Notes under the pieces: model-generated | Databases searched by the model: none | The model's input: the letters and a program-made list of their open reading frames with translations, nothing else | Told to the model about the DNA's origin: nothing | Part shown: positions 41,844 to 64,000 of the stretch, piece by piece | How positions within the stretch are numbered: the first letter of the stretch is position 1 | Layout: the number at the start of each line of letters is the position of its first letter | Assembly: GCA_900543165.1 (NCBI GenBank) | Contig: UQQQ01000003.1 | Location: forward strand, 283-64,282 | Source: an uncultured Dialister sp. | GTDB lineage: Bacteria > Bacillota > Negativicutes > Veillonellales > Dialisteraceae | Direction of reading: 5' to 3' | DNA: 64,000 bases | Position numbers and translations under genes: made by a program

Positions 41844-42272
41844 AGGGCTAGTCCGTGGAGCGGGCTGTTCCCTTGATTACGGGCGAAAGCTTCGCTTGAA
41901 TTAGAAATTAGAAATGAGAAATGCGAAATGGTGGTGCGGTGCCAGATCCTTCGACTCAGTTCTCACTGTTCCGCCTTTACATGATCGAACATCCGACATT
42001 TCACTCCGCTCAGGATGACGAAATGCGCCGCGGAGTATAAATAGGGCGATGCCATGAGCTGGCATTTTAGTTACTAGTCACTGGCTACTCATTGCTACAG
42101 GTTCTATGGGTTCAACGGGTTCTGAAGGTTCTAAGGGTTCAGGTGGCGGCTTCGCCGCAGTATAAAGAAAGGCGATGCCCGAGGGTGGCATTTCAGTCAC
42201 CAGTCACTAGTCACTCCAATCCCCAATCCCTAATCCCGAATCCCTAGCTACTAATTCCTAGTCACAATCACT

Positions 42273-44649: not shown

Positions 44650-44945
44650 CGGTAGAGCAGGGATTGGAAATAAAAAAATCCGTCCCTCGACTGAGGGACG
44701 GATACTGGTTCCGCGTTACCACCCTGATTCCTGAAGGATATGACTATCCCAGGCGCTCTACAACGTACAAACATACGCGTTTCCTGTAACGTGGAAATGA
44801 CGTCGGCGCTTAATAGGTTTCAGCACCGCACCTCAGGGATGATTTTCATATGTCCTGTCCTGCCGGATTGCACCAGACTCCGGCTCTCTGAGAAGATCTC
44901 GGAAATACTACTCTTTCCCTTCAAAGGGTTTTCTTCGTGTGAAGA
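44650..44945 (-). promoter_or_regulatory. T-box riboswitch leader with sigma70-like promoter (TTGACA 44977-44982, TATAAT 44953-44958) and terminator (44672-44704).
   Basis: On the minus strand: the T-box sequence AATCAGGGTGGTAACGCGG (plus 44711-44729); an AGAGA/GUA stem I; a candidate specifier loop ...GAAAAUCAUCCC (AUC = Ile, tentative); and a terminator hairpin ATCCGTCCCTCAGTCGAGGGACGGAT followed by a U-run. Confidence 0.75.
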
Positions 44946-58197: not shown

Positions 58198-58698
58198 TCA
58201 CAGCGAGAATCCGTCTGTGGCATCGCCCGGTTTATCGAGACGGCGGGCGACGTCTTCGTAGCATTCACCCAGATGGAAGACGAGGACATTCAGCGTGTCG
58301 CGGATGGTCTCGGGGTCGAAGTGTTCGTTCGTGTAGGTCACGCAGACATCGAGGAAGACGTTGTCATCGCTGCCGATCGTGTATTTCACGATGGCATGCT
58401 CCCCATTCAGCTTGTTCAGGAAAGGGACGAAGGTCTTTCTGGCCGGGCCCTTCGGCGCGGTGCCGAGGTGGATGCGGATCAGGGTGTACATGCTGTTGTC
58501 CGTGATGACAGCGCAGACCAGCCGGTGCTTGCCCGCAGGCAGCGCGGTCATGAAGACGACCGTGTCGTAGGAGTCATGTGCATCTTGACGGCGGAAGAAA
58601 TTCAGCCCTTCCTTCTTGAGGTAGGACTCGAATGCATCTGCTTTGAGATTTTTTTTGAAATTGCCTTTCGTCGGGAATGGAATCGTATTGTCAGCCAT
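58198..58698 (-). CDS. Hypothetical protein (YbjN-like?).
   Basis: MADNTIPFPTKGNFKKNLKADAFESYLKKEGL… Start chosen for the AAAGG RBS. Confidence 0.45.
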   Translation of the reverse strand: MADNTIPFPTKGNFKKNLKADAFESYLKKEGLNFFRRQDAHDSYDTVVFMTALPAGKHRLVCAVITDNSMYTLIRIHLGTAPKGPARKTFVPFLNKLNGEHAIVKYTIGSDDNVFLDVCVTYTNEHFDPETIRDTLNVLVFHLGECYEDVARRLDKPGDATDGFSL

Positions 58699-59072
58699 GA
58701 GAGAGCCTTTCTGCACCATGTGCGGAGAAATTTTTAATGTGACTTTATTATAGCGGTTCGAGGGGCAGGGGGCAAGGCTTTGCAGCTGCCTGTAGATCGC
58801 GTTTGAACGCCTCGATTGAATGAGAAATTAGAAATGCGAAATGGTGGTACGGCGCATAACAATATAGAAGCGCCGCGGAGTATAGATGGTGGCGATGCCC
58901 GCTTGAGACGTTAGACTTGGAGACCAGGAGATTTTAGAAGTCAGAAGCCTGAAGTCTAAAATCTGAAGTCTCCCGTCTCCTAGTCTATTAGTCTATTAGT
59001 CTATTAGTCTCTTAGTCTCCTAGTCACAAGTCACTAGTCACACTAGTCACGCTACGCCCCCAATAAATTTTC

Positions 59073-59302
59073 TTGACAATCCTAAAGGCGCTGGCTATAC
59101 TTGGTATAACTTCGAACGAAAGGAAGAACCACCATGAGACAGATCTCTGACACCATGAGAACTGCATATGCGTATGACTTTACCGTCAGCTATTATTATG
59201 GCTGCGGCTATTTGGCGTACACGAATTCTCATGAGCGTATCACCCCTTCCAGATAAGCAGGATAGGAATCGAGGACAGGCCCACGAGAGCCTGTCCTTTT
59301 TT
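59073..59302 (+). promoter_or_regulatory. Promoter (TTGACA 59073-78 / TATACT 59096-101), a 40-codon Tyr-rich leader peptide ORF (59133-59255), and a terminator (59272-59302). This is a candidate Tyr-responsive attenuator for the aro cluster.
   Basis: Leader MRQISDTMRTAYAYDFTVSYYYGCGYLAYTNSHERITPSR has 7 Tyr and 1 Phe, RBS GGAAG. It is followed by GGACAGGCCCACGAGAGCCTGTCC plus T6. Confidence 0.5.
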
Positions 59303-59649
59303 GTTAGGGGAATGGTTCAGGGTTAGCCCGTGGGGTGTGTCGCCCTTTGATTGTGAATGAAACTTTGTCTGAATGAGGAATTAGGAATGAGGAATTAGGA
59401 ATGGTGGTGCGGCGCATAAAAATCAGAAGCGCCGCGGAGTATAAATAGTGGCGATGCCCAAAGGCGGTATTCAAGTCACCAGTCACTAGTCACTAGTCAC
59501 TCCTAATCCCTAATCCCCAGCCACTCATCCTTCATCCCCGCTTTCAAACGTAGTTTGTGGGCGTCCCCTGAATCCATAAATCCATTTCTTTCGAAGAACG
59601 TATACCGTAGGATAGAAGCATTGCCTGAAGGCAAAGAGGAGGAATTCGT

Positions 59650-60666
59650 ATGATTATCGTTATGAAACAGAGTGCACCGCTGACAGAGATCGAAAGACTC
59701 GAAGATGAGCTTCGCGAGAAGGGTTTCCAAGTCGACAGAAGCCGCGGCTCGAGCAAGGTTGTGCTGGGACTTGTCGGAGACACGACGAGCCTCGATGAGC
59801 GCGATTTCCTGAGTAATGAATGGGTCGACAAGGTCATGCGCGTGCAGGAACCATACAAGCGGGCGAGCCGCGCCTTCCATCCGCAGGACTCGGTCATCGA
59901 TGTCGCGGGCGTGAAGGTCGGCGGGAAGAAGCTCGTCGTCATGGCAGGGCCGTGCTCCATCGAGACACCGGCGCAGATCGGCGCCATTGCATCGGCGGTG
60001 AAGGCATCCGGCGCATCGATGCTGCGCGGCGGCGCGTTCAAGCCGAGAACGTCCCCCTACTCTTTTCAGGGACTTGGCGAGAAAGGGCTCGATATGCTGA
60101 TCTCCGCGGCCAGAGAAGAGAAGCTCCCCGTCGTGACCGAGCTCATGAGTGCAGACAAGATCGGCATGTTCCTGGAGAAGAAGGTCGACCTCATCCAGAT
60201 CGGCGCGAGAAATATGCAGAACTTCGATCTTCTGAAAGCGGTCGGCCGTCTCCATGTGCCGGTGCTTCTGAAGCGCGGCATGTCGGCGACGATCGAGGAA
60301 TGGCTGATGAGTGCGGAATACATCATGTCGGAAGGAAATCACAACGTCATCCTCTGCGAGCGCGGCATTCGTACTTTTGAAAAGGCGACAAGAAATACAC
60401 TCGACCTTTCGGCGGTGGTAGCGGTGAAGCGCATGAGCCACCTGCCGATCATCGTCGATCCGAGCCACGCGACCGGCCGCCGCTGGATGGTAGAGTCCAT
60501 GGCCATGGCAGCGATCGCCGCCGGCGCCGATGGCATCATGTGCGAGGTACATAATGATCCCGAGCATGCATGGTGCGATGGCGCAGAGTCCATCACGCCG
60601 GAGACTTTTGATCATATGATGGGAAATCTCAGAAAACTCGCCCCGATCGTGGGAAGAGAAATATAG
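59650..60666 (+). CDS. aroG: 3-deoxy-7-phosphoheptulonate (DAHP) synthase, class I-beta, with N-terminal regulatory domain.
   Basis: …LVVMAGPCSIE…GGAFKPRTSPYSFQG… …IVDPSHATGRR… RBS GAGGAGG. TAG stop followed by heptamer repeats. Confidence 0.75.
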   Translation: MIIVMKQSAPLTEIERLEDELREKGFQVDRSRGSSKVVLGLVGDTTSLDERDFLSNEWVDKVMRVQEPYKRASRAFHPQDSVIDVAGVKVGGKKLVVMAGPCSIETPAQIGAIASAVKASGASMLRGGAFKPRTSPYSFQGLGEKGLDMLISAAREEKLPVVTELMSADKIGMFLEKKVDLIQIGARNMQNFDLLKAVGRLHVPVLLKRGMSATIEEWLMSAEYIMSEGNHNVILCERGIRTFEKATRNTLDLSAVVAVKRMSHLPIIVDPSHATGRRWMVESMAMAAIAAGADGIMCEVHNDPEHAWCDGAESITPETFDHMMGNLRKLAPIVGREI

Positions 60667-60669
60667 GGG

Positions 60670-61520
60670 AATCAGTGACTGGTGACTAGTGACTGGTGAC
60701 TGGGAGATGGCAGACTCTTGTATCGTCATTTCGAGCGTAAGCGAGAAATCTTTGTCATTTGCGGTCAGAAGTACGATGTCAGAAAATCCCAAACGGGAAA
60801 CCTGTTATCCTCCAGACTTCGGGCATCGCCCTTTATAAAAATCGACGCGAAGCGTCGCTCCGCCTAAGCCTTCCCCATGGCGGGAAGGACTTTGGACTTC
60901 TCCCTCCTTTCTTTGGAAGGAGGTGCCCCGAAGGGGCGGAGGTTGGCTCCCGCAGCGGGATGAGACGAAATGTGAGACAGCCCGTCCTCCCGTTTCGTCA
61001 TCCCGAGCGCAGCCGAGGGATTTTTCTTGTCGCAGCGGTGTACGGCATGCATGCGGCTGCTCAGAAAACCGCTCAGGCGCTCATCTCACACTCTCCGTTT
61101 CACCGGTGTGCAAGGGAAGATTTCTCGCTTCGCTCGAAATGACAATACGGGGAAGGCGATACTCTCATTTTCCGCCCTTGAGACGTATTTCCTCTCTCTT
61201 TCATACCGCCGGTGCCCTATCCGCCCCTACGGGGCACCTTCCCCTCGAGGGGAAGGCTGATGATGCGAGAATACCATCATCTAACATGGCGGCGAAGCCG
61301 CCAACATAAGTTCGAAAGCAGGGATGATTAGTAGCTAGGGATTAGGAGCCTCGAGTGACTAGTGACTTGTGACTGGTGACTTAAATGCCACTTTCGGGTA
61401 TCGCTATTATTTTTACTCGCGGCGCTTCCTTATTTTTATGCGCCGCACCAGCACTCCTAACTCCTCACTGGCGAGCAAAGCTTTCATCCCCGATCAAAGG
61501 ACAGCACGCCCCACGGGCTA
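60670..61520. repeat. 850-bp composite repeat block between aroG and tyrA.
   Basis: TCGTATCGTCATTTCGAGCG modules, GC-hairpin modules in both orientations, heptamers, module A. Confidence 0.8.
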
Positions 61521-61593
61521 ACCCTTGAACCCGCTCCCTATCATATATTACAATGACCATAGCAACACAATTTCAATAGAAAAGAGCACACAC

Positions 61594-62463
61594 ATGGACA
61601 GCAATCACGACTTTAGCCACTTTACGATCGCCGTCATCGGCCTTGGACTGATGGGCGGCTCCTTCGCCAAACGTTTTAAGGCCATCGGCAGCCGCGTCAT
61701 CGGGATCAACCGCACGACCAGTGTCGCGCAGGAAGCGCTTCGGATGGGGATCGTGGATTCGATTTCCGAAGAGGATCTGAAAGACGCAGACATCGTCATT
61801 TTCTGCACGCCGGAAAAGGGGACGATGGCATTCATTGAAAAGAAACTCGGCCTTTTGAAGAAGGATGCCGTGCTGACAGACATCGCCGGCGTGAAGAATG
61901 ATTTCGCGGAAAAGATCCAGGCGAAGCTCCCGGAAGGGATGGATTTCATCAGTGGGCATCCGATGTGCGGGCATGAGGGCGCAGGACTCTCGCAGTCGGA
62001 CGCAGAGATTTTCCTCGGTGCGAACTACGTCATCATCCCGCAGGAGGGAAACAGTGCCTCGCACATCGCGCTCATCGAGGAGATGGCGCGCGCTCTCGGC
62101 TGCCGGCATGTGCCGAAGGTGACGGCCGATGCGCATGACCGCGCGATCGCTTACACGAGCGATCTCACGCATGTCATCGCGACGGCGCTCATTCAGAGCG
62201 AGTCCTATAATAAAGAAACGAAGTATTTCATGGGCGGCTCTTTCCGCGATGAGACACGCGTGGCGGATATCAATGACCGTCTGTGGACATCGCTTTTCCT
62301 GTCGAACCGGCAGAAGCTGCTGGATGAGATCGACCGCTTCAGCGAGAAGCTGCAGGTGCTGCGGGATGCGATCGAGAGAGAGGACAGCGAGGGGATGGAG
62401 GATTTTCTGAATGAGGCAGGCAGACGAAGGAGGGAACTCATGCATGAAGACAGTGAAGGTTGA
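61594..62463 (+). CDS. tyrA: Prephenate dehydrogenase.
   Basis: …FTIAVIGLGLMGGSFAKR… Rossmann fold plus TyrA C-terminal domain. Confidence 0.7.
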   Translation: MDSNHDFSHFTIAVIGLGLMGGSFAKRFKAIGSRVIGINRTTSVAQEALRMGIVDSISEEDLKDADIVIFCTPEKGTMAFIEKKLGLLKKDAVLTDIAGVKNDFAEKIQAKLPEGMDFISGHPMCGHEGAGLSQSDAEIFLGANYVIIPQEGNSASHIALIEEMARALGCRHVPKVTADAHDRAIAYTSDLTHVIATALIQSESYNKETKYFMGGSFRDETRVADINDRLWTSLFLSNRQKLLDEIDRFSEKLQVLRDAIEREDSEGMEDFLNEAGRRRRELMHEDSEG

Positions 62464-63511
62464 TCTGGGAAGTGATTCGTATCGGATCGAGATCGGGCGC
62501 GGTCTTCTTTCAAGCGTCGGTGAAAAGCTGAAGCAGCTGACGAAGGCGGAGAAGATCGCCGTCGTGACGGATGACCATGTGCGCCGCATCTATGGAGAAA
62601 GGATCAGAGAGGTCCTCAAGGGAGCCGGCTTTGATGTGAAAGTGATCGCCATACCGGCAGGGGAGGCCAGCAAGAATCTCCGTGTCTTCGGTGATGTACT
62701 GGAGGCGCTTGCCGGCTTTGATATGTCAAGAAGCGATGCGCTCGTGACACTCTCCGGCGGCGTCCCGGGGGATCTCGGGGGATTTGCCGCCGCCTCCTAC
62801 ATGAGAGGCATTGATTTCTTCCAGATCCCGACCACCATCCTGGCGCAGATCGACAGCTCTGTCGGCGGCAAGGTCGCTGTCGACCTTCCGAGCGGGAAGA
62901 ATCTGGCAGGCGCGTTCTATCAGCCCAAGGGCGTCTTCATCGATCCAGACCTGCTCTCCACCCTGCCGCCCCGCTATGTGCATGACGGTCTGGCTGAAGC
63001 GGTGAAGTACGGATGCATCGGCGACCGTGAGCTTTTCGAGCTCTTCGAGTCCATTGAGACGGAGGAAGATCTGGAGAAGAACATCGAGGAAATCATCCTG
63101 CGGAGCGTCCTGCAGAAGACGAAATTCGTAGAAGAAGACCAGTACGACAATGGCAGCCGGCAGATGTTGAACTTCGGTCACACCATCGGGCATGCCATCG
63201 AGCGTTACTTCCATTACAATACCTACACCCACGGCGAAGGCGTCGCGATCGGCATGAGTCTCCTCTCTGCGCAGAGTGAGAAGCTCGGCTATACAGAGCG
63301 CGGATGCACCGACCGCCTGCGCGCCGTCCTGAAGAAGCTCGCTCTTCCGACCGCCATCGGTGTTTCGGCAAAGGAGCTCATCCCGCATGTGCTGCACGAT
63401 AAGAAACGCCGCGGTAAAGAAATCACCTTAGTCGTCATGAAAGAAATCGGCCGCGCTGAACTCGTGAAAGTCCCGACAGAAGAGCTCGCCGACTGGATCG
63501 TGACGGAATAG
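62444..63511 (+). CDS. aroB: 3-dehydroquinate synthase.
   Basis: MKTVKVDLGSDSYRIEIGRG… RBS AAGGAGG. Overlaps the tyrA end. Confidence 0.75.
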   Translation: MKTVKVDLGSDSYRIEIGRGLLSSVGEKLKQLTKAEKIAVVTDDHVRRIYGERIREVLKGAGFDVKVIAIPAGEASKNLRVFGDVLEALAGFDMSRSDALVTLSGGVPGDLGGFAAASYMRGIDFFQIPTTILAQIDSSVGGKVAVDLPSGKNLAGAFYQPKGVFIDPDLLSTLPPRYVHDGLAEAVKYGCIGDRELFELFESIETEEDLEKNIEEIILRSVLQKTKFVEEDQYDNGSRQMLNFGHTIGHAIERYFHYNTYTHGEGVAIGMSLLSAQSEKLGYTERGCTDRLRAVLKKLALPTAIGVSAKELIPHVLHDKKRRGKEITLVVMKEIGRAELVKVPTEELADWIVTE

Positions 63512-63958: not shown

Positions 63959-64000
63959 CTATGCATATCACCATCACCCCCACGCCGCTTTCCGGCGTGA
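63959..64000 (+). CDS. Start of next gene (possibly EPSP synthase AroA), partial.
   Basis: RBS AAGGAG. MHITITPTPLSGV…. Confidence 0.3.
   Translation, partial: LCISPSPPRRFPA

Follow-up and report, generated by a model that had tools for sequence, protein, structure and literature searches.

In the leader-peptide attenuators of Escherichia coli, pheL-pheA and trpL-trpEDCBA, an intrinsic terminator is combined with codons for the end product and with three alternative pairings of the leader RNA, 1:2, 2:3 and 3:4. There the stop codon lies by region 2, and the regulatory codons lie within region 1, so that a single stalled ribosome masks region 1. In Firmicutes, the usual sensors of amino-acid genes are T-boxes. 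Reports of leader-peptide attenuators from this group are sporadic (PMC2965389, PMC9413887). Ahead of aroF in Corynebacterium glutamicum, the aroR leader peptide attenuates the operon of 3-deoxy-D-arabino-heptulosonate 7-phosphate (DAHP) synthase; a review has it that aroR responded to Phe and not to Tyr (Neshat et al. 2014, as summarised in PMC11802643). In Acholeplasma, the predicted upstream open reading frame (uORF) uORFC-13-1 also precedes aroF, with a promoter, a ribosome-binding site, Phe codons and an adjacent terminator (Brewer et al. 2021, PMC8632094). Here we describe a leader ahead of the DAHP synthase gene (aroG) in a stretch of 64,000 nucleotides from an uncultured Dialister sp. 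(contig UQQQ01000003.1), called the window below. This leader is very likely a ribosome-mediated, leader-peptide transcription attenuator of the DAHP synthase-tyrA-aroB-aroA operon that senses charged aromatic tRNAs. The tRNA sensed would be mainly tRNA-Tyr in the lineage of the window, and those of Tyr, Phe and Trp across the family of related leaders.

Judged from its sequence, the Dialister leader carries every feature that characterises the leader-peptide attenuator class at that level. With pheL and trpL it shares the logic of the three pairings, a stop codon by region 2, end-product codons and an intrinsic terminator. Unlike in these two, its region 1 is made of the Shine-Dalgarno (SD) sequence and the start codon, the aromatic codons lie 30-90 nt further downstream, around the apex of a long rod, and the peptide is 2-3 times longer. 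The comparison with aroR and uORFC-13-1, the nearest precedents, is one of published descriptions (PMC11802643, PMC8632094). Like aroR, the Dialister leader stands before a DAHP synthase gene, contains aromatic codons (Phe-Tyr-Phe in aroR) and would be read through on uncharged aromatic tRNA; in the review, however, aroR is an actinobacterial leader with a single Phe-Tyr-Phe cluster, whereas the Dialister family has 33-55 codons, several clusters and another operon (PMC11802643). The uORFC-13-1 motif, whose defining feature is a Phe-coding U-run, occurs only in Acholeplasma and in environmental sequences (PMC8632094). Finally, like T-box leaders, the Dialister leader would terminate transcription conditionally upstream of amino-acid genes in a Firmicute, but it would sense through translation of an open reading frame (ORF), whereas a T-box binds tRNA.

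The elements of the leader are listed in Table 1. The original prediction had described a promoter, a 40-residue ORF with 7 Tyr and 1 Phe, and a strong terminator, and all three were found where it had placed them. The promoter matches the consensus at 11 of 12 positions and ranks first of the 8 promoter-like sites between 58000 and 62000, a segment in which shuffles give 2.6; the leader transcript would start near 59108. An SD sequence, AAGGAAG (59120-59126), stands 7 nt ahead of the ATG at 59134, which opens an ORF of 40 codons encoding MRQISDTMRTAYAYDFTVSYYYGCGYLAYTNSHERITPSR and ending with a stop codon at 59254-59256. From a Tyr content of 2.25% in the long ORFs of the window, an approximate background because some of these ORFs are probably spurious, the probability of at least 7 Tyr in 40 residues is about 3e-5, and a scan of the 64-kb window found no comparable aromatic-rich small ORF elsewhere. 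The terminator consists of a 10-bp stem (59271-59298) followed by TTTTTTGTT, with a free energy of -17.9 kcal/mol (z = -3.3 against shuffles). We also considered that it might belong to an upstream gene. This was rejected, as the ORF next to it, 58198-58719, runs in the other direction and a conserved promoter belongs to the leader itself.

A scan with the DAHP synthase, in which each species was represented by one genome, gave 80 loci, cited here by their L numbers. In all 31 loci of Dialister, Allisonella, Megasphaera and other Veillonellaceae, the same cassette was present ahead of the DAHP synthase gene: a promoter of the form TTGACAA-N17/18-TAnAnT, an SD sequence, an ORF of 33-55 codons, and a hairpin followed by a U-run. 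It lies 60-120 nt upstream of the gene in relatives that lack the repeat insertion described below. A nucleotide profile (nhmmer) built from the Dialister/Allisonella clade detected the two other clades with E values of 1e-7 to 1e-3, and we concluded that the leaders form a single homologous family. The leader is single-copy per locus and single-copy in the window. Thus the small ORF, whose conservation had been left as a point to be checked, is open, preceded by an SD sequence and rich in aromatic codons in 31 of 31 loci and in three clades.

Among the 24 distinct leaders, the aromatic frame is open in every case, with Tyr, Phe and Trp making up 19-29% of the residues, and it stays open through insertions and deletions, always with an SD sequence and an ATG. 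Frames 2 and 3 contain a mean of 2.4 and 2.8 stops, and only 8% and 13% aromatic residues. The leaders of the family hold 8-13 aromatic codons in several clusters, and in each relative the first of these codons is codon 10-13. From clade to clade the aromatic positions persist, with Tyr, Phe and Trp replacing each other and most relatives adding a Trp, and the peptides share the motif AY.(F/Y).(F/Y)..(S/G)(Y/F)(Y/F)(Y/F)G.G(Y/F)(F/L). The tuning to Tyr and Phe that had been proposed is to be read with a caveat: the sensor would be one of aromatic residues in general, the strong Tyr bias is a property of this lineage alone, and relatives mix Tyr, Phe and Trp. Between relatives, substitutions fall evenly on all three codon positions, most of them being nonsynonymous, which indicates that purifying selection does not act on the peptide sequence itself. 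Preserved are the open frame with its start, the site at which it stops, and the aromatic codons. This fits an ORF that would behave as a sensor and not as a functional protein, and RNA pairing can account for the remaining conserved residues, some of which (e.g. an invariant Gly and a C-terminal H-E-S) it probably imposes.

The minimum free energy (MFE) fold of the full leader of the window consists of the terminator and of a long hairpin, in which CAUGAGA (59133-59139) pairs with UCUCAUG (59227-59233). Over the relatives, three mutually exclusive pairings with compensatory changes were found. In 1:2, the leader's own SD sequence and start codon pair with the last codons of the ORF; in 2:3, the antiterminator, these last codons pair with the 5' arm and loop of the terminator; and 3:4 is the terminator itself. 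Region 1 resembles region 3, and region 2 resembles region 4, as in classical attenuators. An alternative antiterminator structure, the other point left to be checked, does therefore exist.

Support for these pairings was scored on A1, an alignment of 16 Dialister and Allisonella leaders. RNAalifold returned a closing stem joining the SD region to a CCCUUUCC-type sequence before the stop codon, an apical hairpin with the Tyr-Tyr-Tyr codons, and the terminator. Compensatory changes were present in 5 of the 7 pairs of the closing 1:2 helix. For the structure of the terminator state as a whole, 93% of the cells of the alignment were paired, compared to 36-54% in slid controls, and 12 pairs had changed on both sides. 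Taken separately, the helix of the apical hairpin, possibly a pause hairpin, was 94% paired with 2 pairs changed on both sides, and the terminator was 95% paired with 5 such pairs. The antiterminator, evaluated at fixed columns, had 77% of its cells paired against 36-49% in slid controls, and here too 5 pairs had changed on both sides.

The terminator loop is informative here, since its bases have no partner in the terminator and yet vary in step with region 2: the combination is CAUGAG/CUCAUG in some leaders, CCGGG/CUCCGG in L010 and L012, GAUGAG/CUCAUC in L016 and L019, and GCUGAG/CUCAGGC in L022. Antiterminator duplexes range from -15 to -23 kcal/mol in Dialister and Allisonella, and from -18 to -29.5 kcal/mol in the other two clades; in relatives the antiterminator is about as stable as the terminator. 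When the 3' arm of the terminator is left out of the RNA, the antiterminator is the MFE structure of L014 (-21.0 kcal/mol, z = -2.65) and of L016 (-17.9 kcal/mol, z = -2.96), as well as of L009 (-15.5 kcal/mol), L010 (-20.2 kcal/mol) and L027 (-27.9 kcal/mol).

The switch would work as follows, its dynamics being taken from the established trp/phe attenuation model. The conserved promoter would drive a leader of about 200 nt ending in the intrinsic terminator. With ample Tyr/Phe-tRNA, the ribosome would reach the stop codon and cover region 2, which is within about 30 nt upstream; 3:4 would then form, and transcription would end before aroG. With scarce charged tRNA, the ribosome would stall on the aromatic codons (59167-59220) and leave region 2 free, while following ribosomes would occupy region 1. 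Region 2 would then pair with region 3 as it emerges, the terminator would be blocked and the operon transcribed. If the leader is not translated at all, the entire ORF would close up into a rod through 1:2, and transcription would again terminate.

Several points weigh against this reading. Region 1 coincides with the ribosome-binding site, which one ribosome halted at codons 12-29 would leave uncovered. The antiterminator of the window has a free energy of -14.2 kcal/mol with z = -0.63, no better than that of shuffles, and in the window lineage it contains two A.C mismatches and large internal loops. The controls for covariation are affected by kinship among only 16 sequences. Lastly, translation of the leader and termination in response to Tyr or Phe are predicted properties.

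The masking of region 1 is the weakest part of the model. Because region 1 lies outside the regulatory codons, the attenuator would need either trailing or initiating ribosomes, or a kinetic edge of the local 2:3 hairpin. In the first case, following ribosomes would mask region 1, the first aromatic codon, at codon 10-13, being about one footprint from the start. Alternatively, it may be that the local 2:3 hairpin kinetically beats a 1:2 helix that must close around the ribosome.

Taken further, the same feature could define a distinct design, in which read-through needs a queue of ribosomes and the leader RNA or peptide may in addition act in trans; we consider this rather improbable. Starvation would halt the leading ribosome at the first of the aromatic clusters and so trap an initiating ribosome on the SD sequence and AUG behind it, and the several clusters, at intervals of roughly one footprint, would serve such a queue. 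The part in trans would be played by an abundant terminated leader RNA of about 190 nt or by the aromatic peptide of 40 residues. If true, such a switch would integrate tRNA charging with the capacity for translation initiation.

Coming back to the attenuator as first described, its weak antiterminator in the window lineage was compared with that of relatives. The pairing of regions 2 and 3 in the window ranges from -14 to -16.5 kcal/mol and is the sole alternative fold that touches the terminator. The terminator loop of the lineage is CCCACGAGA in place of ACUCAUGAGA, a difference that produces the two A.C mismatches in the antiterminator and at the same time removes one mismatch from the terminator. 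The terminator is favoured over the antiterminator by 4.7 kcal/mol in the window, compared to 8.3 in L011, 4.8 in L020 and 4.7 in L022. The fold of the window alone does not settle the attenuator reading; it is the comparison with relatives that appears to do so, and ribosome-mediated attenuation, as the original prediction had it, draws its support from there. We read the weak antiterminator of this lineage as tuning rather than decay.

That the attenuator has decayed in the window lineage, aroG being expressed from elsewhere or at a constitutively low level on account of the weakened antiterminator and of the 260-nt repeat insertion, has nevertheless to be weighed, and we give it a small chance. 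The 2:3 helix that does not exceed shuffles speaks for it, and so do the repeats that interrupt the operon: 860 nt separate aroG from tyrA, whereas L014, L022 and L029 have their genes tightly packed or overlapping. However, the ORF, the aromatic codons, the SD sequence, the promoter and the terminator are intact in 9 of 9 members of the lineage, with or without the repeat insertion described below, the energy gap of +4.7 kcal/mol is inside the range of the family, and the inserted block has no promoter-like site on the + strand from which aroG could be expressed.

Slightly less probable still is an independent small gene, that is, a terminated transcript of about 190 nt specifying a functional micro-protein of 40 residues and/or a small RNA acting in trans, with a terminator that only separates it from aroG. 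Small RNAs and peptides derived from attenuators and acting in trans are known, such as rnTrpL and peTrpL in Sinorhizobium. The promoter and terminator are both strong, and the peptide, at 33-55 residues, is longer than classical leader peptides and has a recognisable motif; a trans role may exist in addition to attenuation. As a main explanation, a functional micro-protein was rejected on the flat, mostly nonsynonymous distribution of substitutions over codon positions, and no protein family was matched by the peptide of the window in Pfam or by four peptides of the family in NCBIfam. Moreover, the same operon is linked to the leader at every locus, and a covarying antiterminator makes sense only for conditional read-through.

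The least probable explanation is control of the terminator by RNA alone, through a riboswitch, a T-box-like element or a protein-binding RNA, the ORF being incidental to a rod-like RNA: the long rod with its highly conserved apical hairpin and covarying stems, the residues (invariant Gly, H-E-S) whose conservation probably stems from pairing, and the use of a T-box elsewhere in the genome are in its favour, but it leaves unexplained a frame that is open with SD and ATG in every one of the 24 distinct leaders although stops close the two other frames, aromatic codons enriched three-fold over these frames with Tyr/Phe/Trp exchanges that pairing does not require, and a stop codon at a fixed position adjoining region 2, and no Rfam model matched even at E <= 10.

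The Rfam search (cmscan of 58700-59700 at E <= 10) returned only chance matches to microRNA and long non-coding RNA families; the Phe, Trp, His, Leu and Thr leaders and the T-box (RF00230) were unmatched, and uORFC-13-1 is not among the Rfam matches for the window. T-box and riboswitch readings of the leader were rejected, having no match either at the gathering threshold or at E <= 10. Over the whole window, the sole Rfam match at the gathering threshold is a T-box at 44691-44933 on the - strand, full-length, with 132 bits and E = 3.8e-29; the genome would therefore use both T-box and leader-peptide sensing. At the protein level, the leader peptide of the window had no Pfam match at the default cut-off, and four peptides of the family had no NCBIfam match at E <= 10. 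In the searched literature we found nothing relevant on an aromatic leader of Veillonellaceae or Negativicutes, or on a Tyr-codon leader. The Veillonellaceae aro leader family is apparently undescribed, the attenuation mechanism itself being textbook.

We next describe the surroundings of the leader. In the window, a block of about 260 nt separates the terminator from the SD sequence of aroG. It is present also in L003, L006 and L025, whereas L001, L002, L004, L005 and L007, with leaders that are 95-97% identical, lack it. The repeat insertion between attenuator and aroG that had been proposed is thus a presence/absence polymorphism among near-identical relatives, and the length of its 7-nt tandem tract differs in L006. 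The block is one copy of a modular, composite dispersed repeat of about 190-210 nt without Rfam match, whose modules are a GGTTAGCCC..GGGGCG (GGGGYG) hairpin, 7-nt tandem tracts (GAATGAG/GAATTAG, AGTCACT, TAATCCC) and a TGGTGGTGCGGCGC-loop-GCGCCGCGGAGTATA core (GCGGCGC..GCGCCGC). The core has 13 matches in the 64-kb window which, together with a diverged copy at 61418-61453, makes at least 14 copies in both orientations. The copy at 42022 carries an insertion of about 83 nt in the loop of the core hairpin. An inverted copy at 61326-61525 is 78-84% complementary to the copy ahead of aroG, and the two bracket the DAHP synthase gene.

It had been suggested that the block might uncouple regulation or contribute terminators of its own. 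From 59101 to 61525, a consensus scan of the + strand found nothing resembling a promoter. The idea that the block holds a promoter or a strong terminator was rejected: its single weak hairpin-plus-T site, 59332-59346, is a standard module of the repeat, and the GCGGCGC..GCGCCGC hairpin has no U-run. The block is located after the decision point of the attenuator and lengthens the 5' untranslated region of read-through transcripts. Nothing suggests that it uncouples regulation or changes the decision, although it may do so.

Downstream, Pfam assigned the first three genes of the operon as predicted. The DAHP synthase, of type I-beta, starts with a ferredoxin-like domain at its N-terminus and shares 98-99% identity with its counterparts in several Dialister genomes; its gene has its own SD sequence, AGAGGAGG, at 59635-59642. 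The fourth gene, an ORF starting at 63961, runs off the end of the window; the gene for 5-enolpyruvylshikimate-3-phosphate (EPSP) synthase is at this position in relatives, and the ORF is presumed to be aroA. The order DAHP synthase-tyrA-aroB-aroA is found also in L014, L024 and L029, and the products of this conserved operon serve the synthesis of aromatic amino acids. The spacers of the window operon are long and filled with repeats (some 860 nt from aroG to tyrA, and some 450 nt from aroB to the gene that follows it), whereas the same genes abut or overlap in L014, L022 and L029.

Table 1. Coordinates of the leader, its surroundings and the downstream genes in the window.
Feature	Position	Strand	Remarks
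Sigma-70-type promoter of leader transcript	59073-59101	+	TTGACA, 17 nt, TATACT; same place in 31/31 related loci
Region 1, leader translation-initiation region	59120-59139	+	SD GGAAG 59122-59126, start CAUGAGA 59133-59139; predicted to pair with region 2 when ribosome-free
Leader peptide ORF	59134-59256	+	40 codons + stop; open in 24/24 distinct relatives
Putative regulatory aromatic codons	59167-59220	+	Tyr12 59167, Tyr14 59173, Phe16 59179, Tyr20-22 59191-59199, Tyr26 59209, Tyr29 59218
Apical hairpin, Tyr-Tyr-Tyr codons in stem and loop	59183-59207	+	CCG-U-CAGCUAU / UAUU / AUGGCUG-CGG
Region 2, last ORF codons (UUCUCAUGAGCGUAUCACCCCUUCCA)	59226-59251	+	Predicted partner of region 1 or region 3
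Region 3, terminator 5' arm and loop	59264-59290	+	With region 2, predicted antiterminator
Intrinsic terminator, regions 3:4	59271-59305	+	Stem GAGGACAGGC/GCCUGUCCUU, then U-run; present in 31/31 loci
Dispersed repeat copy in leader-aroG spacer	59319-59529	+	Surrounding variable sequence about 59311-59575
Repeat-core positions	3305, 20733, 25779, 30776, 33914, 38722, 42022, 46482, 48413, 54661, 58867, 59426, 61424, 63803	both	Over the window
DAHP synthase gene, first structural gene	59650-60666	+	PF00793 1.8e-78; PF18152 1.8e-21
Prephenate dehydrogenase (tyrA)	61525-62463	+	ORF; Pfam
3-Dehydroquinate synthase (aroB)	62411-63511	+	Pfam

Some observations on the relatives are reported here for completeness. 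In the second Veillonellaceae clade, the leader transcript opens with an extra 5' hairpin (e.g. ACUCACCGGACGUUCGGUGGG) upstream of the SD sequence, at L024:3717-3740, L026:3727-3750, L027:3747-3765, L028:3733-3755 and L032:3720-3742. The sequence of its stem varies between species with pairing kept, and it is absent from the window lineage. Locus L004 (CAVBQN010000091.1) was deposited as Fusicatenibacter saccharivorans (Lachnospiraceae), and its leader and DAHP synthase are 97-99% identical to those of the window; this contig is probably mis-binned or a contaminant.

Outside the family, aromatic-rich short ORFs were found directly before type I-beta DAHP synthase genes in metagenome-assembled genomes (MAGs) of Christensenellaceae/Clostridia, Oscillospiraceae and Peribacteria (L033:3193-3352, L034:3842-4000, L039:3813-4000 and L042:3760-4000; e.g. 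MKNNNFVFYFGYFYFRPY and ..SSSWDFDYFFYFFLTP), each followed by a hairpin and a T7-T8 run. It seems that aromatic leader peptides have evolved repeatedly at this gene. MAGs labelled as Woesearchaeota or Methanosarcinales also have conserved aromatic uORFs before DAHP synthase, MKAGNNSGKLNSGSFNLAYSFYYFSY and ..IGFAFYRLFSSFKYFFFYFRF (L044:3688-3768, L045, L048:3758-3838; L035, L037:3832-3930, L057). A hairpin terminator is not obvious in these, and long T-runs are made up by their Phe codons. If the bins are truly archaeal, this would mean leader-peptide-like control in DPANN archaea, but mis-binning is possible.

As the mechanism is textbook, the gain is incremental and not conceptual; a single design feature is unusual. 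For annotators, it consists of a small ORF and a cis-regulatory RNA outside all Rfam, Pfam and NCBIfam models. Several lineages that are not related to each other are also seen to have aromatic uORFs ahead of a type I-beta DAHP synthase gene. The 24 natural variants amount to a mutational series on how stalling would be turned into antitermination by a long, multi-cluster leader in which region 1 is the ribosome-binding site. For the Negativicutes, among which are the common human gut and oral genera Dialister, Megasphaera and Allisonella, the leader would add a well-supported, family-wide aromatic attenuator, and through it the entry step of the shikimate pathway would be controlled together with tyrA.

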